Positions 12,508 to 53,738 are shown, counted from the first letter of the stretch. The stretch: DNA of 64,000 bases from Mariniblastus sp. (GCA_022447605.1 JAKVBG010000016.1:28376-92375), one strand, 5' to 3'. Numbers and translations are program-made. The notes: generated from the sequence alone by a model not told the origin.

Positions 12508-12687
12508 GGTCTTGCTAGCAAATAGGTATTGGACGTCTGTTCCTTTATATCCGATTCCATCCGGATGAACATTGCTGGCAATTCGGATCATGAGGAATGA
12601 GTTGAGATTCCGATATAGATACAACAGGCTGTGGGTGTTATGGTTGGCCGCTGCGCTGATGACGGGTGACTCTCCGAGGAAGAAAAG

Positions 12688-13626
12688 TTGAGCCAATTGT
12701 TGAACCTGAGATTGCGAAAGCTGACCCGTGGGTCAATCTTGGTTCTGGCATTGGCCGTCGTCGCTTCTACCGGCTGCCACGCCTTTCGGCCATTCCAGCA
12801 GGTCAACAACTCATTGGCCGATGCGCGACTTTGGGAACAGGGGGGACGGGAAGCCCTTTCTCATGGAAATATTGACGAGGCAAAAAACTGCCTCCGAAGA
12901 GCGATCAACAACGCGCCGGGTGATCGACAGATTCGCGAGCAATTGGCTGATATCTGCATGGAGCGAGATGAATATCCGGAAGCGATTGCCGAGTTGACAC
13001 GAGCGGTGGATCTGGCTGAAGAGGATGCCGAATTGCGGGTCAAGTTGGGACGCGCCTACTTGAAATGCGGGAAGCTGATTCCTGCCCAACGACAGGCCGA
13101 GTTGGCCCTGGAGACTGACCGGCAGTTGGCCTCGGCCTGGGAATTGTGTGGCCAGACCCATTGGGCCAAGAAAGAATTACCGGCAGCGGTGGCTGATTTG
13201 CAACGGGCTTTGAGCATTGAGCCAAAACGGCGCGGTGTCCAGGTCCAGATTGCCTGTCTACACCGGCAAATGGGCGAATCGAAGCGCGCCCTGTCAGGTA
13301 TTGAGCAGCTGCTGAGTCAATATCCGGATGGCCAGGAGCCACAGGATGCTCTTCTCCTGCAGGGAGTTGTGTTGATCGATCTGCATCAGTACTCATCGGC
13401 CATCGAACAGTTGCAGATGGCCGTCAACCGTAGCGATGCGACCTGCGAGGCGTTTGTTCAGTTATCACGGGCCCAATTCCTGGCCGGGCAACCATCACTG
13501 GCCCGGTCCACCTTGACCCGTGGATTGGAGAGGTACCCGGCAGAAGCGAAGTTGACCGCCCTGTTGAACCAGTTGCAGGAAATCGACAGCGGCCATGTGG
13601 CGACCACCGGATCATTGAAGCGTTGA
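12688..13626 (+). CDS. Tetratricopeptide-repeat protein, probable lipoprotein
   Basis: Signal-like N-terminus ending STGC; repeated helical A/L/G TPR patterns; TTG start. Confidence 0.8.
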   Translation: MSQLLNLRLRKLTRGSILVLALAVVASTGCHAFRPFQQVNNSLADARLWEQGGREALSHGNIDEAKNCLRRAINNAPGDRQIREQLADICMERDEYPEAIAELTRAVDLAEEDAELRVKLGRAYLKCGKLIPAQRQAELALETDRQLASAWELCGQTHWAKKELPAAVADLQRALSIEPKRRGVQVQIACLHRQMGESKRALSGIEQLLSQYPDGQEPQDALLLQGVVLIDLHQYSSAIEQLQMAVNRSDATCEAFVQLSRAQFLAGQPSLARSTLTRGLERYPAEAKLTALLNQLQEIDSGHVATTGSLKR

Positions 13627-46492: not shown

Positions 46493-47185
46493 TCAGTGGT
46501 TTCCATCCAGGCCGAGTCGAGCTCTTAGCTGTTCAAATTGCTGGGCATAGTTGTCGGTTGATGAATGGATATGTTCGGCTTCTGTAATGAATTGCATGTC
46601 GTCGTTATGGGGTACCTTGTGACACTCCAGTACGTGTTCAAAATGCTCCAGTGGGCTGCCATAGACAATCAACAACTTGTGTTCATCAAACTGGATTTCC
46701 TGGGGCGTTTTCGGGTTGAGCACCGCAATGCCCGTACATCCGTCGTTGGTCAACAGGTCTTCGAATTGCCATAAAATACTGGTGAGAACCGGCATGTCGA
46801 TATGTTCACGGTACATATCCACATGCTCGGGCGACTTCTGTTCGTGGCTGGTTTCCAACACGACATCGACGACCGGGCCGAGTCGCTGGATCAAGTCCAT
46901 GAACAATGGGAACAGGGTGTCGCGTGAAGCGGAGGCCATGACGACGGGGACCTTTGACTGGGTGCTTTCGTCGACGTAGGTGTCGTTGCGGTATCCCTGA
47001 ACCGGTTTGATTTTCAGGTCGATTGCCGGGCGGACCGCATCGGTCAGTTCGAACGAACCGTACTGATTGATTTTCATATGAGCTTCGAGTTGTTCCTGGC
47101 TAATCGTCTGGAAACTGTTACTCGAATGTCCCAGGGGATTGGGCTCATCATATGGATTCTCGAAAAAACGCTGTAAAAAAGCCAT
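46493..47185 (-). CDS. Hypothetical acidic/His-rich cytoplasmic protein
   Basis: 230-aa protein-like ORF with its own terminator; no family recognised. Confidence 0.75.
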   Translation of the reverse strand: MAFLQRFFENPYDEPNPLGHSSNSFQTISQEQLEAHMKINQYGSFELTDAVRPAIDLKIKPVQGYRNDTYVDESTQSKVPVVMASASRDTLFPLFMDLIQRLGPVVDVVLETSHEQKSPEHVDMYREHIDMPVLTSILWQFEDLLTNDGCTGIAVLNPKTPQEIQFDEHKLLIVYGSPLEHFEHVLECHKVPHNDDMQFITEAEHIHSSTDNYAQQFEQLRARLGLDGNH

Positions 47186-47471
47186 TGCGCTGCAACCTTG
47201 GGTCCTAAAGTATGATCTGGCAGATCGGGAACTGTTTTTTGTGGAACGATTTGAATTCGATCGCGGATGTCGCGTCGTCTACAAAAAACCCTAGGTTGTC
47301 GTTGATGAGGTCAGGTTAAAGTTGGTTGGGAAGGTTGTGAAACTAAGGATTTAGTTTCCCCACCGGCGTTAAAATCGGCATATCCTGCCAAACGTCCCCA
47401 TAACCCTTGATACGACCAATAATTACCGCGAAGATTAGTCCGTCAAGAGCTTGAAAAACAGGGCTTTACCG

Positions 47472-48098
47472 ATGACTGACGAATTTCCGTCAAAACCGCA
47501 GGATCTGCCGCAACCTGCTGCCCCCCAGTCGGTTCCTCACCCAATTCTCCGTGCGGGACGCTTGGTTTTAAGGCCGCTTGAATCGGCTGACGCCCCGCGA
47601 GTGCAGGAGATCTGTCGGGATCGAGGGATTGCGGCCACGACCCGCAATGTTCCTCATCCGTATCCCGAGGGTGCCGCTCTGCTGTGGATTGAATCCCATC
47701 CGGAGCTTTGGTCCAGTGGAAAAGCGGCCGTTTTTGGCATCTGCCTGGACGAGGACCAGGGAGCGAGTCTGGTCGGTGCGATCGGTTTGGAGATCAATCC
47801 ATTGGATCACCACGCAGAAATCGGATATTGGTTGTCCAGGGAATGCTGGGGGCAGGGGATCTGTACAGAGGCCGTCGAAGTGATTGTCCGTTTCGGCTTT
47901 GAACAACTCGGCTTGCAACGAATTCATGCCATTTGCATGGCCAGCAACCCGGCCTCGGGGCGGGTGTTGGAAAAAAACGGCCTGATCAAGGAGGGGCGGC
48001 TGCGAAATCACATTCGAAAATGGGGCGTTTTTCACGACGTTGACGTGTACGGCATCCTCCGCCGTGATTCTGACTTGGTAGCTCACCGCGACGGCTGA
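47472..48098 (+). CDS. GNAT acetyltransferase, RimJ/RimL family
   Basis: RLVLRPL, AEIGYWL, WGQGICTEA, NPASGRVLEKNG; ORF opens at TTG 47451. Confidence 0.92.
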   Translation: MTDEFPSKPQDLPQPAAPQSVPHPILRAGRLVLRPLESADAPRVQEICRDRGIAATTRNVPHPYPEGAALLWIESHPELWSSGKAAVFGICLDEDQGASLVGAIGLEINPLDHHAEIGYWLSRECWGQGICTEAVEVIVRFGFEQLGLQRIHAICMASNPASGRVLEKNGLIKEGRLRNHIRKWGVFHDVDVYGILRRDSDLVAHRDG

Positions 48099-48352: not shown

Positions 48353-48655
48353 ATGACTGAGATGGCCGAGACAAAGACCCCTGAACAGCAAGGGACACGA
48401 GTTACGTTCCTGGACCAAACCGGAGCCAAGAGTGTGGATGCGGTGGTTTCTGACGCCATTACCGTGCGACGGATTCTGCCGAGCATCATCACCAAGATGA
48501 ACCTGCCTGTGGTCGGACCGGATGGTCAGCCGCTGAGCTACAGTCTGGACCACAAAGAGGGGGGCCGACGTTTGGATGAAAATCAGACACTCGTCGAGGC
48601 AAACGTTTCCACGGGCGACCACTTGATTATCTATCCTGAAATCGTAGCCGGGTAA
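48353..48655 (+). CDS. Ubiquitin-like beta-grasp protein (EsaB/YukD-like) ending in -VAG
   Basis: VTFLDQTG...LxENQTLxEAxVxxGDxLxI pattern typical of Ub-fold proteins; stop directly after Ala-Gly; starts at ATG 48353 (GAGGGG upstream) or 48362. Confidence 0.85.
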   Translation: MTEMAETKTPEQQGTRVTFLDQTGAKSVDAVVSDAITVRRILPSIITKMNLPVVGPDGQPLSYSLDHKEGGRRLDENQTLVEANVSTGDHLIIYPEIVAG

Positions 48656-48769
48656 GCCACTTTTTGGCATGGGGATGATGTTGTTAAAGCCCGGTCATTA
48701 ACCGAACCTTTCTGGCTTCCCCAGGGGACTGCCAAAACGAATGGAAAATTTCAAGTTGTTAAAGGAACG

Positions 48770-49348
48770 ATGCGTAAATCACCCAGGGAACGCCGATTGC
48801 AGGCCGATTTCGAGTCGGTTCAAAAACTAAGCCGAGAGAGTTCCATCTTTGGTTTCGTGGCTTCAGGAACCCCGCATCAACAGTACCGGCTGCTTTTCAA
48901 CGGGAAGGGACTGGCGCGGGATCCGGCTGGCCGGATTGCCTTGGCCCAGCATCACGAAGTGATCGTTGAGTTGGGTGCTGCCTATCCCCGGATGATGCCC
49001 CAATTGGCATGGCAAACCCCGATCTTTCATCCCAACATCTCCAACAATGGCGTGGTCTGCCTGGGGGGGTATGGAGCCCACTGGGTGCCGAGCCTGACGC
49101 TTGACCAATTGTGCGGCATGCTGTGGGACATGATCCGTTACAGGAACTTTGATACCGATAGTCCCTATAACCGTGATGCGGCCCTTTGGATTCGGGCGCA
49201 GAACCAATTTTCATTGCCGCTCGACCGGCGAAATATCCGTGATCGAGTTGCGGGTGATTCGGCCGGAGCTGCCCCGAAGCGGAGGATAATCGATTCGGGG
49301 ATCGAGATCATTACACCCGGAAGTGACGAAATCACCTTTATCGAGTAA
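48770..49348 (+). CDS. Stand-alone E2 ubiquitin-conjugating (UBC-fold) enzyme
   Basis: RRLQADF helix 1, AYPxxxP, TPIFHPNI (HPN 87-89), catalytic Cys97 in GVVCL, W-x-P, DSPYNRDAA. Confidence 0.92.
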   Translation: MRKSPRERRLQADFESVQKLSRESSIFGFVASGTPHQQYRLLFNGKGLARDPAGRIALAQHHEVIVELGAAYPRMMPQLAWQTPIFHPNISNNGVVCLGGYGAHWVPSLTLDQLCGMLWDMIRYRNFDTDSPYNRDAALWIRAQNQFSLPLDRRNIRDRVAGDSAGAAPKRRIIDSGIEIITPGSDEITFIE

Positions 49349-50615
49349 TTTCCAATCTCATCATGAGGCTTGTGGATTGAATATCGAAAGATGCAATCTC
49401 AGTGACGAGGTGTTTGCCGGTGCGGCCTGTCCAGAGCAAGTGGCCTTGAGCGGCTGTGAAGCGACCGGTTCACCCGACTTGTTGATTAACGATGATGATC
49501 GCTATTCCCGGCTGCGCCTGATTGGCTGGTGGGAGCAGGAAAAAATCGCGGCCGCCAAGGTGTTGGTGGTGGGCGCCGGGGCGCTGGGCAACGAGGTCTT
49601 GAAGAACCTGGTCCTGATGGGGATTGGTGAAATTACACTGGTTGATTTTGATACCGTGCAATGCTCCAACCTTTCGCGGTCAGTCCTGTTTCGATCCGGG
49701 GATGCGGGCCAACCGAAGGCGGTGGTTGCAGCCAGGGTGGCTCAAGAATTGAATCCCGACTGTAAAATCAAAGCCGTGCAGGGAGATGTCCTGACCGAGA
49801 TCGGGTTGGGGTTCGTTCGTGAACAGGACGTGGTGATCAGTTGTGTGGACAACCGGGAGGCCCGTCTCTGGATCAACCGCATGTGTTGGAAGGTGGCGAC
49901 GCCCTGGATCGATGGCGGGATTCAGGAAATCAACGGCGTGGCCAAGGTGTTCCGGCCTGGCGAGGGTCCCTGTTACGAGTGCGGGATGACGGAAAAAGAT
50001 TACCAGCTCATCCAGTTGCGTTACAGTTGCCCTTTGTTAAAGCAGGAAGACGTGCTGCAGGGCAGGGTGCCCACGGCACCGACCATTGCCTCGATGATCG
50101 GAGGACTCCAGGTCCAGGAGGCGCTGAAGCTGATTCACGATATGCCAACCGAGGGAGGTACAGCGCTTGTTTACAACGGCGTCGCCAATCGGTTTTATTC
50201 GACCCGATACCCCTGGCGAGAAGACTGCCTGTCTCACGAATCGTATGAACCGATCATCCGTTCCCCCTTGAGCGCGCAGACTTCCACCTTGTCGGATCTG
50301 TTTGGCTTTGTTGATTTACTTGGGGTGGGCCGAGCCGAGCAGCTTGAACTGGACCGGGACCTGGTCGAACAGCTCGAATGCCGGCTGTGTGGTCACCAAG
50401 TTCCAGTGGGGCAACCCCGCTCCGATGTCCCGATGAAGCGTGCCATCTGTGAGCGGTGTGAACAACCGATGGCCATCACGATGACCCATCAAATTGACCG
50501 CGCTGCAGCGTCCAGCCGTAAGCTCTGTCAGGTCGGGATCCCAGCATACGATATCGTGAAGGTCCGGACCGATTCTGGCATCCAGTTCATTCAATTGTCG
50601 GGAGATGCCCCCTGA
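49323..50615 (+). CDS. E1-like (ThiF/MoeB/UBA) activating enzyme with C-terminal Zn-ribbon extension
   Basis: VVGAGALGNE, VDFDTVQCSNLSR, CVDNREAR, PCYEC, candidate catalytic Cys in YSC, CLSH, then CRLC...CERC; true start uncertain. Confidence 0.93.
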   Translation: MTKSPLSSNFQSHHEACGLNIERCNLSDEVFAGAACPEQVALSGCEATGSPDLLINDDDRYSRLRLIGWWEQEKIAAAKVLVVGAGALGNEVLKNLVLMGIGEITLVDFDTVQCSNLSRSVLFRSGDAGQPKAVVAARVAQELNPDCKIKAVQGDVLTEIGLGFVREQDVVISCVDNREARLWINRMCWKVATPWIDGGIQEINGVAKVFRPGEGPCYECGMTEKDYQLIQLRYSCPLLKQEDVLQGRVPTAPTIASMIGGLQVQEALKLIHDMPTEGGTALVYNGVANRFYSTRYPWREDCLSHESYEPIIRSPLSAQTSTLSDLFGFVDLLGVGRAEQLELDRDLVEQLECRLCGHQVPVGQPRSDVPMKRAICERCEQPMAITMTHQIDRAAASSRKLCQVGIPAYDIVKVRTDSGIQFIQLSGDAP

Positions 50616-50682
50616 CGGGGAGCTCCCGTTTGCCCTGCCAAGGGGCAGAACCCGTTTCCTGACTTCAAGCCACCGTCGAACC

Positions 50683-52131
50683 ATGGATGCTGATATCCAA
50701 CTTGGCCCCCTGCAACAGGCCGCGACCGAGCAGGCGATCCGTCCCGATCGGGATCGGCGTTACCTGACGGCAACGTGTGGGCGATTTGCTCCTGATGATT
50801 TGCCAATTTTTGTCGATCTGGATGTCATGCGAGACATGGAGGCCCACGCCCGGTCCAACACCAATGTTGAGTTGGGGGGTGTGATGCTGGGAGTCCAATG
50901 CATCGACGCCGAGGGGGCTCCGTTCATCATGGTGACCGATGCTCTAAGGGCCCGGCACTACGAGGCGACCCGGGGGAGCTTCAAGTTCACTGCCGATACC
51001 TGGAGCCAAATCACCCGTGACCGTGCCGAGTTACCCGGTCACCTCCAGATGATCGGCTGGTATCACACACATCCTGGATGGGGCGTGTTCCTTTCCGGTC
51101 TGGATCGTTTCATTTGCAACCACTTTTTCGGCCGGCCACTGGATGTGGCCCTGGTGATTGACCCCTGTTCCGGTGAACGGGGTTGGTTTCAGTGGGCCGC
51201 GTCGTCAAGAAAGTTGAAGAAGAAACGCAAGGTCAAGGGATTTTTCCTGATGGCCAACCGTTATCGAAAATCGGAGCTGGAATATTATCAGCGTCTTTAC
51301 TCGGGCCCGGGCTCGACGTCGATGAACTCCCACTCCGATTCGCATGCCGAGCGTGACGGTCTTTTGCCAGATTCGAACAGATTCCCAACCGATGACTCAA
51401 GGGTGAACATGATGGATGCTCGAAGAACTGTTTTTGACCTTGCCGTGGTTTCTGTTTTGCTGCTTCAGCTCGTGATGGCTTCCCTGTTTGGATGGAAGTT
51501 ACTGGAATGGACGCCCAGGCCAGAGTCCGCTGATGTTTCTCGACAGCAGGCATCGGAGGCTGTCGCCACTGCCCGAGAGACAGCTTACGCAGAAATCTTG
51601 GAAAGTGTCGTGGCCGGCCAGACCGGGCAGGAGGGAATGGTTGAAGAGATGATGGAAATGAAGGAGCAGAAGAGGCTCTTGCGGGCCAACCTGCAGGGGC
51701 AACTGGCCCGTGTCGAACAGATTCGCCTGGAGAACCACTCCATACAGGACGAGTTGGATTTGACCCGGAAACGGGCGCATGCACTGGAGCAGCAGGTGGC
51801 CGGCCTGCAGGACAAAAACCTCCGGTCTGACCGTGAACTGAGGGAACTCAGGAATTCTGCCCCAATGGCGGTAGAAAATCGGTCAGATCCGGTGGTCGCC
51901 GACGAATCAGGATGGTGGCAGGCGGTCTGGCCAGTTTACGGATTCTGGGGGAGCGGCCTGATCTTCCTGCTGGGCGGATTCGCCGGTTGCCTGGTCGCCC
52001 GGTGCTTTGTCAGCCGAGTTGATCCCGGCCGGGAGCCGAGCGAGGAGGTAGTCGATCTGGTAGGGGAAGCGGACCGGCTCGAATTTGAACGAGGGGACAA
52101 ACGGCCGCCGCTGAGTCGGCTGGAAGGATAA
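50683..52131 (+). CDS. JAB/MPN+ metallo-isopeptidase fused to TM-coiled coil-TM
   Basis: VELGG Glu and GWYHTHPGWGVFLSGLD JAMM motif (HxH-x7-S-x2-D); two hydrophobic segments around a heptad region; likely ATG at 50683. Confidence 0.9.
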   Translation: MDADIQLGPLQQAATEQAIRPDRDRRYLTATCGRFAPDDLPIFVDLDVMRDMEAHARSNTNVELGGVMLGVQCIDAEGAPFIMVTDALRARHYEATRGSFKFTADTWSQITRDRAELPGHLQMIGWYHTHPGWGVFLSGLDRFICNHFFGRPLDVALVIDPCSGERGWFQWAASSRKLKKKRKVKGFFLMANRYRKSELEYYQRLYSGPGSTSMNSHSDSHAERDGLLPDSNRFPTDDSRVNMMDARRTVFDLAVVSVLLLQLVMASLFGWKLLEWTPRPESADVSRQQASEAVATARETAYAEILESVVAGQTGQEGMVEEMMEMKEQKRLLRANLQGQLARVEQIRLENHSIQDELDLTRKRAHALEQQVAGLQDKNLRSDRELRELRNSAPMAVENRSDPVVADESGWWQAVWPVYGFWGSGLIFLLGGFAGCLVARCFVSRVDPGREPSEEVVDLVGEADRLEFERGDKRPPLSRLEG

Positions 52132-52170
52132 TCCGTGTCGTCTCGTGTTCCGATTTGACGTTGAAAAAAA

Positions 52171-53022
52171 ATGACCGTAATCATTTTCATTTTTGTGTTA
52201 GCCGTGCTGCTGGGAACAGGTGTCCTGGTCTTCATCAGCATTTGCTCCATGTTTGCGAGCTTGGCACCGTCGTACCGTACTTATGAGAAACTTGCCGACC
52301 GTTACCAGGGACATTTCCAGGCAGGTATCCTGTTTCGCGATCCATGGCTTAAGTTTCGACATGGTGACTCGAATTGTGTGTTGAATCATGGGAGCCGGAA
52401 GGTTGGTTATCCGGCAGGCATGACCCGATTGACGATTGACGGGCATGACCCGCACGTTGGGCTGCTGGTGACGACGCCAACGGCAGAGAAGGGGCTGCCG
52501 AGCCGATTTGGCATGCAGTCAGTTCGTTTGCCCGCTGAGTTTTCCGGTCACGATTTCAAGGTGCAAAGCAACCGACCCGACGAGGCTGCTCTCCTGTTTC
52601 AGGGCAGTGCATTGTGGAAGTTGCGCCAATTGGCCTATCATGTCGGGCAGGCCGGGATCGAGATCCGTATGGATCGGGGCAAGCTGATGATCACCCAATG
52701 TGAATCGCTTCACGAGTTTCAGGCATTGGATGACTTTGTGCGGTGCGGGCTGGAACTGCATCATCAATTTTCCCTCAAAGCGGCCCCGGAGATCGAGTTT
52801 GTAAAGGAAGATCTGGTGACGATCGTGGAAGCGGTGCAATGCCCGATTTGCAGCGATTCAATTCACGATTCCATGGTGGTCTGTGTCCGTTGCAAAACAC
52901 CGCATTGCCTGGACTGTTGGCAATACAATGGCCGATGTTCGACATTTGCCTGTGGGGAGACCCGATACCTGGGCGCAGGCATAGCCGGAATTTTGGCAGG
53001 CGATCAGGAGAGTATGAGCTAG
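52171..53022 (+). CDS. Membrane-anchored protein with C-terminal prokaryotic RING-like finger (candidate E3)
   Basis: N-terminal TM helix; CPIC-x10-CVRCKTPHCLDCW-x5-CSTFAC at 52840-52953. Confidence 0.85.
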   Translation: MTVIIFIFVLAVLLGTGVLVFISICSMFASLAPSYRTYEKLADRYQGHFQAGILFRDPWLKFRHGDSNCVLNHGSRKVGYPAGMTRLTIDGHDPHVGLLVTTPTAEKGLPSRFGMQSVRLPAEFSGHDFKVQSNRPDEAALLFQGSALWKLRQLAYHVGQAGIEIRMDRGKLMITQCESLHEFQALDDFVRCGLELHHQFSLKAAPEIEFVKEDLVTIVEAVQCPICSDSIHDSMVVCVRCKTPHCLDCWQYNGRCSTFACGETRYLGAGIAGILAGDQESMS

Positions 53023-53096
53023 GCTGACGCCAGTCGTCCTGGTCCTGTCAGGAGAAGACCGGCCGACCGGCAGACCGGCAGGGTGAGCATGGATTG

Positions 53097-53738
53097 ATGA
53101 GTCAATTTTTCATTCAGACTGAGCGAGTCGGGTTGCGTAAGTTTCAAGCAACCGACCTGGATCCGTTCACCCGGATCAATAACGATCCCCGGGTCATGGA
53201 GTTTTTCCCGCAACGGCTGTCACGCGAGGAATGTCGCGATTACATGCAACGGATCAACACACGAATCGACCTGCAGGGTTTTGGATTTTGGGCCGCCGAA
53301 AACCTGCAGGATCGTCAGCTGATGGGGTTTGTCGGGATCACCGAAGTGACCTACCAGACTGATTTTACGCCGGCTGTAGAGATTGGCTGGCGGTTGGCCG
53401 TTCCCTACTGGGGCCACGGTTTCGCGACCGAAGCGGCCTGGGGCTGTCTGCAGTTTGGTTTCGAACAGGCCAGCCTGGAACGTATCGTCTCCTTTACGAC
53501 CCCACTCAACCAGCGATCCCGGCGCGTTATGGAGAGGCTGGGGATGGTTTGCCGGGGGCAGTTTAATCACCCATTGATCCCGCCAGGCCATCGTTTGCGA
53601 CCCCATGTCTGGTATTCGTGCGAGCGAGACCAGTTCCGGGAGTCAGCCCCGCCTAAGGAGACGCCCAGTGATTGCTCAACTGTTCCAGCAGCGGATCAAT
53701 CGTCTGGCCCTGGATCGAATGGGGAGGCTCCCACTTAA
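53097..53738 (+). CDS. GNAT acetyltransferase, RimJ/RimL family
   Basis: TERVGLR, VEIGWRL, WGHGFATEAA, NQRSRRVMERLGM. Confidence 0.92.
   Translation: MSQFFIQTERVGLRKFQATDLDPFTRINNDPRVMEFFPQRLSREECRDYMQRINTRIDLQGFGFWAAENLQDRQLMGFVGITEVTYQTDFTPAVEIGWRLAVPYWGHGFATEAAWGCLQFGFEQASLERIVSFTTPLNQRSRRVMERLGMVCRGQFNHPLIPPGHRLRPHVWYSCERDQFRESAPPKETPSDCSTVPAADQSSGPGSNGEAPT

Follow-up and report, generated by a model that had tools for sequence, protein, structure and literature searches.

We analyzed a 64,000-nt stretch of the genome of Mariniblastus sp. (GCA_022447605.1, JAKVBG010000016.1:28376-92375; called the window below, with positions counted from its first letter) and found that it carries, at 48353-53022, an operon encoding a ubiquitin-like protein (Ubl), an E2 conjugating enzyme, an E1 activating enzyme, a JAB peptidase and a RING-finger protein that is a candidate E3 ligase. 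We think it probable (about three chances in four) that these proteins make up a self-contained, reversible Ubl-conjugation cascade at the cytoplasmic face of the inner membrane.

Results

A conserved five-gene operon

ORF (open reading frame) calling revealed five consecutive ORFs, all on the + strand (Table 1), and profile searches against Pfam with curated cut-offs placed all five proteins above cut-off. An initial annotation, made from the sequence alone, had described five co-directional genes for the tag, E1, E2, JAB and RING, and the strand of the ORFs and their Pfam matches agree with this description. The identities that it gave to the components were upheld by the profile searches and by conservation and, for the RING protein, also by a structure model predicted with confidence. 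The catalytic and zinc residues of the operon proteins were invariant or nearly so among 54-81 homologues (30 sequences in the E2 alignment). The genome contains a single E2, a single YukD-type Ubl and a single Prok-RING_1 protein, and NCBI's public annotation has the components correctly labelled already, as 'ubiquitin-conjugating enzyme E2' and 'RING finger protein'. A scan for promoters and terminators found no more sites than in shuffled sequences, and no structure that beat shuffled sequence was found in the spacer between the Ubl and E2 genes (z +1.6).

A scan of species-representative genomes yielded 80 loci, all of them Pirellulaceae/Mariniblastus-like, and 59 of these had enough flanking sequence for gene order to be compared. 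The five genes were present in identical order at 56 of the 59 well-covered loci. Three of the 59 (L051, L056 and L057) had no detectable RING gene, and at L057 the order was Ubl-E2-JAB-E1, followed by unrelated genes. The same operon was found in a cultured species, Mariniblastus fucicola (complete genome CP042912.1), where the proteins are 95 aa (YukD), 322 aa (UQ_con), 385 aa (ThiF), 436 aa (JAB) and 282 aa (Prok-RING_1) long. The initial annotation had named lack of synteny elsewhere, in advance, as one of the points on which its case could fail, and the order proved to be kept in dozens of species.

The median identity to the window proteins was 80% for the Ubl (80 loci), 60% for the E2, 60% for the E1, 40% for the JAB and 34% for the RING protein. 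PII proteins are among the most conserved bacterial proteins, and the PII encoded next to the operon has a median identity of 82%; the Ubl is thus about equally conserved and stands far above its enzymes, a pattern that would be expected of a tag that has to fit several partners.

The Ubl and the E2

The Ubl scored 59.7 bits against Pfam YukD (cut-off, 27) and also matched EccD weakly, and a sequence search of the PDB with the Ubl returned zero matches. Its C-terminus reads YPEIVAG and is immediately followed by the stop codon, which agrees with the initial annotation of a Ubl that ends in -AG and needs no processing, as far as the window genome is concerned. YPEIVAG was invariant among 80 homologues; 66 of them stop directly after AG, and about 12 add a short tail of 1-13 residues. 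An invariant VAG end with variable tails is the signature expected of a processed, C-terminally activated modifier that is made as a precursor in some species. Because of these tails, JAB peptidases of the family probably also mature the Ubl precursors.

The E2 was annotated as a stand-alone enzyme with an HPN motif and a Cys eight residues after the Asn, and both features were confirmed: HPN lies at residues 87-89 and the catalytic Cys97 exactly eight residues past Asn89. H87, P88, N89 and C97, together with Y72-P73 of loop 4 and P107-S108 of loop 7, were invariant in 30 of 30 E2 sequences. The best PDB matches of the E2 were Ubc9 and UbcH5 (both 2e-8), and a large protein collection held 1,883 relatives, of which the named ones are called 'ubiquitin-conjugating enzyme E2' of Mariniblastus and other Planctomycetota. 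At the extreme C-terminus, 29 of the 30 aligned E2s carry tail motifs of the type IEII-ETGIEII and GIVFLD (pattern IEII-xxGIEII and GIxF[LI][DE]), which follow a linker of about 20 to more than 150 residues depending on the species. The tail could be an element resembling a SUMO-interacting motif that binds the Ubl or another partner.

The E1

For the E1, the initial annotation had listed adenylation, Zn and candidate catalytic Cys motifs, and all of these were recovered in the ThiF-matching protein: GAGALG at residues 84-89, C217xxC220, Cys235, C302xxH305, C353xxC356 and C376xxC379. The motifs were invariant in 72 sequences, with the C-terminal C353, C356, C376 and C379 at least 90% conserved. 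C217xxC220 and C302xxH305 make a probable structural Zn site. The crossover loop of the E1 is short (~30 residues), aligns with the loop of UBA5 and contains the invariant Cys235, a plausible candidate for the thioester site.

The C-terminal domain of the E1 was modelled by AlphaFold2 with a predicted local distance difference test (pLDDT) score of 93.2. By template-modelling (TM) score, its top structural match was the ubiquitin-fold domain (UFD) of the SUMO E1 bound to Ubc9 (5fq2_B, TM 0.42/0.53, with a weak E of 0.9), and it is possible that the modelled domain is UFD-like and recruits the E2.

The E1 is conserved from residue 56 onward, and its orthologue in M. fucicola is 385 aa long; for these reasons the true E1 start is probably a GTG or TTG at 49440-49482, later than the 49323 of the longest ORF. 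The JAB start is probably Met27 (50683), which is likelier than 50605 because a conserved N-terminal motif of its relatives begins there. Therefore, the 26-nt overlap between the E2 and E1 genes may not be real, and the overlap between the E1 and JAB genes is uncertain.

We then considered whether the E1 and Ubl could be a sulfur-carrier pair only, of the ThiF/ThiS, MoeB/MoaD or TtuC/TtuB type, with the E2, RING and JAB being accessory or vestigial. The E1 adenylation domain is indeed of the compact MoeB/ThiF size, has a CxxC zinc site and matches ThiF and MoeB models, and the cases of Urm1, SAMP and TtuB show that sulfur carriage and conjugation can be combined in a single Ubl (PMC4197634). 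However, the E1 stays well below the equivalog cut-offs of NCBIfam, with 152.7 bits against 275 for ThiF, 133.9 against 449 for MoeB and 116.7 against 450 for UbaA (as a group, 117-153 bits against cut-offs of 266-450), and in the PDB the active adenylation domains of the conjugating eukaryotic E1s UBA7, UBA1, UBA6 and SAE2 (1e-34 to 1e-26) outscored ThiF/MoeB (~1e-24). In contrast to the ThiF/ThiS, MoeB/MoaD and UbaA/SAMP pairs, the Ubl ends in AG and not GG, a rhodanese domain is absent, and genes for thiamine, molybdopterin or tRNA thiolation do not adjoin the operon. Purifying selection acts strictly on the Cys and HPN of the E2, on the ligands of the RING and on the JAMM residues, and because these catalytic and zinc residues are so strictly conserved the three proteins are not vestigial. 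A pure sulfur-carrier role is thus unlikely on the pattern of conservation and for want of biosynthetic neighbours, and we hold this explanation to be highly improbable.

The membrane-anchored JAB and RING proteins

The JAB protein was confirmed as the JAMM-motif peptidase of the initial annotation by its Prok-JAB and JAB matches above cut-off and by the invariant JAMM residues, Glu89 and H154-x-H156-x7-S164-x2-D167 in the numbering of the long ORF. Its best PDB matches were CSN5 (1.5e-11), Rpn11 (1e-7) and the Rpn11-like protein of Caldiarchaeum (6fjv, 2e-6). Ahead of the JAB domain, nearly all membrane-JAB homologues share the motif D-IQFG-E ... RPD-D-H-F/Y (residues 27-60). Hydropathy analysis revealed two hydrophobic helices (TM1 and TM2, for transmembrane) with a variable coiled-coil stretch between them, and both helices were present in most JAB homologues.

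The RING finger scored 33.9 bits against Prok-RING_1 (cut-off, 29.1), a Pfam family which we take to originate from Burroughs, Iyer and Aravind (Mol Biosyst 2011). The score, together with conserved ligands, bears out the RING-like finger that had been noticed in the sequence: C224, C227, C238, C241, H245, C249, W250, C256 and C261 were invariant in 54 of 54 RING sequences, while position 246 was Cys in 45 and His in 9 of them, position 226 was Ile in 45 and Val in 9, and Arg265 was kept in 47. The E2-contact positions are therefore retained on both partners, namely I226 (Ile/Val) and W250 of the RING and Y72-P73 and P107-S108 of the E2. An AlphaFold2 model built from the 54 sequences (pLDDT 88.7) contains a helix at residues 2-29, a mixed alpha/beta middle domain at 48-204 and then the finger. 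A Foldseek search with the middle domain found the mycobacterial transport factor TtfA (6t84, E 8e-5, TM 0.63 on the target) and, more weakly, DR_1245, and close homologues of the RING protein matched Pfam DUF3137 above cut-off over this domain. The modelled finger could be superposed on two RINGs whose structures were solved with UbcH5b, those of BIRC7 and cIAP2, as well as on the ZZ domain of p62, with probabilities of 0.75-0.97; the Foldseek E-values for the finger were weak because the domain is small.

The initial annotation had also proposed that the candidate ligase and the deconjugase are both membrane proteins, and the hydropathy helices, which are kept in nearly all homologues, support this. 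In the RING protein the N-terminal hydrophobic helix is found in about 55 of 61 homologues, with nothing ahead of it and only basic residues behind it. By the positive-inside rule, the RING ligase domain would be cytoplasmic and the very short N-terminus outside.

Two membrane anchors would also be explained if the Ubl were attached not to proteins but to a membrane amine such as the head group of phosphatidylethanolamine, by analogy with Atg8 lipidation. The middle domain of the RING protein resembles TtfA, which is a lipid (trehalose monomycolate) transport factor, and planctomycete membranes are heavily invaginated (PMC8567305). Nonetheless, RING E3s and HPN-bearing UBC E2s classically aminolyse to lysine, and generic chaperone-like domains that bind proteins, such as DR_1245, have the TtfA-like fold too, and we regard lipidation as very improbable.

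Site and distribution of the cassette

At the window locus and at most related loci, the cassette is flanked on one side by a divergent gene for a 230-aa protein and a GNAT gene, and on the other by genes for a nudix protein, a cobalamin adenosyltransferase (cobI), PII and GlnD. An empty site was identified in a genome of the same genus (G008, 97% complete), in which ~130 bp separate the GNAT gene from the nudix gene next to it, and the entire cassette from Ubl to RING, together with a second GNAT gene, is missing; the flanking proteins there are 75-89% identical to those of the window. The E2 was present in 26 of 36 sampled species of the genus and missing in 10 of 36, and it was found in 0 of 24 other families of the order, each represented by one genome. 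A search with the E2 gave zero matches in 50,697 phage records and one match in 72,556 plasmids. We read the cassette as vertically inherited and yet dispensable, since it occupies a fixed site between housekeeping genes and is cleanly absent from a close relative; it would have been lost repeatedly and is not a mobile island.

The sole plasmid relative (H1, NC_019754.1:40572-41030) belongs to Crinalium epipsammum PCC 9333, is 29% identical to the E2 and is annotated as a ubiquitin-conjugating enzyme E2.

These data bear on whether the same chemistry serves anti-phage defence, as in Bil, with the membrane RING tagging a phage protein during entry or assembly and the JAB limiting self-damage. 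Where bacterial operons with E1, E2 and deubiquitinase (DUB) genes have an established role, as type II CBASS (cyclic-oligonucleotide-based antiphage signaling system) and Bil I/II do, that role is defensive; for Bub, conjugation is all that has been demonstrated, and a role in the stress response has been suggested (PMC11601603; 10.1101/2023.09.26.559546). The dispensability of the cassette, missing from 10 of the 36 species and cleanly so in G008, would fit defence, and so would the RING (34%) and JAB (40%) proteins being the fastest to evolve, as an arms race would predict. On the other hand, the cassette sits at a constant housekeeping site (230-aa gene and GNAT; nudix, cobI, PII and GlnD) in dozens of species and not in a variable island, the phage search was blank and the plasmid search nearly so, and the Ubl is 80% conserved. 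PADLOC returned no match for the Ubl, E2 or RING, and its matches for the E1 and JAB to Cap2, BilD and JAB models were weak and partial (BilD 1.3e-10; Cap2 over the adenylation core only). The PADLOC, phage and plasmid searches thus lent no support to a mobile defence element, and the genomic context here lends none to a Bil-like role. We consider a defensive role unlikely, though worth keeping in mind.

Three neighbouring genes were considered as members of the system and rejected. The divergent upstream gene looked linked, being present at 64 of 80 loci, but 59 of the 61 genomes sampled from the order have it, and among these is every one of the 24 sampled families that lack the E2; it is therefore a core gene outside the system. 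Its 230-aa product is 55-81% identical across relatives. In G008 the upstream GNAT gene is found at its usual place even though the cassette is absent. The downstream GNAT gene does not follow the RING gene at other loci, where apparent matches to it were the upstream paralogue; the two GNAT genes of the window are distant paralogues.

Variants and expansions in relatives

Relatives of the operon vary in the number of their components. About 25 of the 80 loci have an extra small soluble JAB between the E2 and E1 genes, several loci have two or three RING genes, and 13 loci have a second E2-like protein between the membrane JAB and the RING. In this second protein HPN is kept and the catalytic Cys is replaced by Asn, Gly or His in 13 of 13 cases, and we class it as a variant resembling the ubiquitin E2 variants (UEVs). 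The most expanded form combines all of these (L084, in Table 1; also L060, L075, L076, L091 and others). Other planctomycete families (loci L096-L099; genomes G434, G421, G447 and G117) have the order E1-Ubl-E2-soluble JAB with an E2 that is ~50% identical and no adjacent RING gene; in families with this order the RING genes sit elsewhere in the genome.

In a sample of 400 genomes from the phylum, an E2 homologue was found in 55, Prok-RING_1 in 60 and both in 46, so that Prok-RING_1 occurred in 46 of the 55 E2-bearing genomes and in 14 of the 345 without the E2. All 11 genomes of one family (f46: G114, G139, G274, G336, G351, G366 and others) had from 10 to at least 16 Prok-RING_1 genes each. 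G421 had 30 Prok-RING_1 matches, 26 of them above cut-off, on more than 20 contigs. These expansions, which lie dispersed from the E1-Ubl-E2-JAB core and which we did not find discussed in the literature searched, are reminiscent of the eukaryotic layout of one E1 and many E3s.

Table 1. Features of the operon, its surroundings and related loci. Positions are those of the window unless a locus or genome is named.
Feature	Position	Strand	Size or residues	Description
Ubl	48353-48655	+	100 aa	YukD-family beta-grasp, E 4.7e-16
E2	48770-49348	+	192 aa	UQ_con, E 3.3e-13
E2 HPN motif	49028-49036	+	87-89	
E2 catalytic Cys	49058-49060	+	97	
E2 C-terminal tail	49265-49345	+	166-192	Acidic-hydrophobic motifs IIDSGIEII ... 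EITFIE after variable linker
E1	49323-50615 (longest ORF)	+	430 aa	ThiF, E 7.9e-60
E1 GAGALG motif	49572-49589	+	84-89	
E1 Cys235	50025-50027	+	235	Plausible thioester site
E1 C-terminal domain	50220-50612	+	300-430	Beta-rich, four-Cys zinc ribbon (C353, C356, C376, C379)
JAB	50605 or 50683-52131	+	508/482 aa	Prok-JAB 1.7e-6, JAB 6.9e-6
JAB N-terminal motif	50683-50780	+	27-60	
JAB Glu89	50869-50871	+	89	Catalytic
JAB HxHx7Sx2D	51064-51105	+	154-167	
JAB TM1	~51424-51492	+	~274-296	Hydrophobic helix
JAB TM2	~51940-52014	+	~446-470	Hydrophobic helix
RING protein	52171-53022	+	283 aa	Prok-RING_1, E 2.9e-8
RING protein anchor helix	52174-52257	+		N-terminal hydrophobic helix
DUF3137/TtfA-like middle domain	52312-52782	+		Foldseek and Pfam matches of homologues
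Prok-RING_1 finger	52834-52974	+		C-terminal, Cys/His-rich at 224-261
Divergent upstream gene	46493-47185	-	230 aa	No Pfam match; rejected as member
Upstream GNAT	47451-48098			Rejected as member
Downstream GNAT	53094-53738	+		Rejected as member
Expanded form	L084:7584-14701			Ubl precursor, E2, small soluble JAB, E1, membrane JAB, Cys-less E2-like, 2-3 membrane RINGs
Empty site	L094 (G008:C12:366000-382000), ~12565-12700			GNAT and nudix genes adjacent

Discussion

The reading that we prefer, a reversible conjugation cascade at the inner membrane, suggests a series of steps in which we infer the chemistry, the topology, the nature of the target and the fate of the tagged proteins. The E1 would use ATP to adenylate the terminal Gly100 of the ready-made Ubl, which would then move to Cys235 in the crossover loop of the E1 as a thioester, in a short-loop, UBA5-like layout that has no separate Cys domain. 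The Ubl would be handed to Cys97 of the UBC-type E2. The single-pass RING protein would use its Ile226/Trp250 surface to bind the charged E2 and its DUF3137/TtfA-like domain to bind a substrate, and would promote transfer of the Ubl to an amine of that substrate. The acceptor would most likely be a lysine, in a protein that lies in the membrane or is associated with it. The JAMM peptidase, with two helices in the same membrane and its coiled-coil loop presumably outside, would remove the tag. In relatives with a tailed Ubl, a JAB enzyme would also trim the precursor.

Several observations weigh against this reading. By sequence the Ubl belongs to the YukD family, and it ends in Ala-Gly and not Gly-Gly; to our knowledge, the characterised member of that family is not conjugated. 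The E1 has no separate catalytic-Cys domain, and Cys235 lies ~10 residues ahead of the position of UBA5 Cys250 and is not exactly aligned with it. The C-terminal domain of the E1 gave no significant structural match in the PDB, so that a ubiquitin-fold identity was not obtained for it. For the finger, Foldseek does not separate RING from ZZ. The membrane topology is predicted from hydropathy and the positive-inside rule only, and no substrate, reader or downstream protease could be linked to the operon.

As to what such a cascade would do, one tentative possibility is housekeeping-type signalling in free-living bacteria that is unrelated to defence. The membrane RING would mark certain inner-membrane proteins for extraction, turnover or relocation, and the outward coiled coil of the JAB would couple removal of the tag to the state of the envelope, in an analogue of endoplasmic-reticulum-associated degradation (ERAD) or of sorting in endosomes. 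In sister lineages of planctomycetes, this core would have grown into a network that includes a Cys-less E2 and from ten to at least 30 RINGs per genome. The analogy to ERAD or endocytosis, which the initial annotation had also drawn, derives from membrane anchoring alone.

In 2011 Burroughs, Iyer and Aravind predicted operons with Ubl, E1, E2, RING and JAB genes in Actinobacteria, Planctomycetes and Acidobacteria; a 2014 review that summarizes the prediction calls these RING-bearing operons uncharacterised and 'often missing in close relatives' (PMC4197634). Arcas and colleagues devoted a 2013 paper to planctomycete E2 enzymes, as cited in PMC8382908, and the 2023 preprint on Bil still counts bacterial RING-E3 operons as uncharacterised (10.1101/2023.09.26.559546). 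The statement in the initial annotation that such operons had been predicted in planctomycetes and are uncharacterised thus matches the literature (see also PMC5654768), and in the literature searched to late 2026 we found no experimental study of a bacterial Ubl operon that bears a RING. From its gene content, we assign the window operon to the class predicted in 2011 and do not regard it as a new kind of system. It shares with that class the five components, the RING family, the operon arrangement, the sporadic distribution and, from what is quoted in PMC11354881, the C4HC3-type finger. Compared with the class as it is described in papers that cite the prediction, the following features are probably additional here: within one Pirellulaceae clade the cassette is inherited vertically at a constant place in the chromosome, the E3 contains a DUF3137/TtfA-like domain, the JAB is anchored by two helices, and expanded sister forms have a Cys-less variant of the E2 together with several RING genes.

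A counterpart that has been reconstituted is archaeal. The operon of Caldiarchaeum subterraneum (Aigarchaeota) and of Asgard archaea encodes ubiquitin, an E1-like, an E2-like, a small RING protein and Rpn11, and was reconstituted in vitro in 2017-2018 (PMC5654768; PMC6043591). Mutagenesis of the Caldiarchaeum cascade showed that an Ile and a Trp of the RING and residues in loops 4 and 7 of the E2 are required for ligation (PMC5654768). The window operon has the same five-part logic, the loop-4/7 contacts of a UBC E2, the Ile/Trp of the RING and a JAMM peptidase of the Rpn11/CSN5 type, and some of its relatives likewise encode Ubl precursors that would need trimming. The two differ in several respects. 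The archaeal tag is a ubiquitin homologue that ends in GG and is made as a precursor, whereas the window Ubl is of the YukD family, ends in AG and is made mature; in archaea the RING protein is small, soluble and of the RING-H2 type, whereas the window finger is of the C4HC3 type and sits on a membrane-anchored protein with a candidate substrate domain; Rpn11 is soluble in archaea and the window JAB is anchored in the membrane; and the E1 Cys, which lies in a separate ~60-residue domain in archaea (PMC11354881), lies in a ~30-residue loop here.

Among bacterial systems, Bil (BilABCD, types I and II) also has separate Ubl, E2, JAB and E1 genes, and the gene order at L057 is Bil-like. For Bil, conjugation of the Ubl to target proteins has been shown experimentally. 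Bil has no RING E3, its components are soluble and its E2 has a CEHH motif (PMC11354881), in contrast to the RING, the membrane anchors and the HPN...C of the window operon, and Bil loci lie in defence contexts, where the window operon does not. Type II CBASS and Bub share the E1, E2 and JAB chemistry, and the window E1 and JAB weakly match Cap2/Cap3 models. However, in CBASS a fusion of E2 and E1 carries out the conjugation of a CD-NTase, whereas the E1 and E2 of the window are separate genes, and Bub (6E/DUF6527) has Ubl-E2, JAB-E1 or E2-E1 fusions together with a DUF6527 serine protease (PMC11601603). No CD-NTase was found in the neighbourhood of the operon, and no fusion or DUF6527 match was found among the five proteins or their neighbours. 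The Ubl also shares its family with YukD and the N-terminal Ubl domains of EccD in type VII secretion, but here it has a conserved, exposed Ala-Gly and E1, E2, RING and JAB neighbours; no type VII secretion genes were found among the neighbours of the operon, and no genome-wide search for them was made.

That CBASS and Bil lack a RING E3, as stated in the initial annotation, proved correct, and the same is true of Bub (PMC11601603). The bacterial conjugation systems that have been characterised are thus all without a RING E3, and none with a RING-type E3 was found in the literature searched. The value of the window operon is that of a compact, conserved test case that is present in a culturable strain. 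With five genes, many species, a cultured strain and soluble domains of a size that suits reconstitution, it offers a practical test of RING-dependent ligation in bacteria. It could show what is tagged by a membrane-anchored pair of E3 and DUB, and what relation the E1-E2-RING logic of eukaryotes bears to bacterial antecedents. If the housekeeping network outlined above is true, the RING network in sister planctomycetes would parallel the expansion of E3 ligases in eukaryotes.

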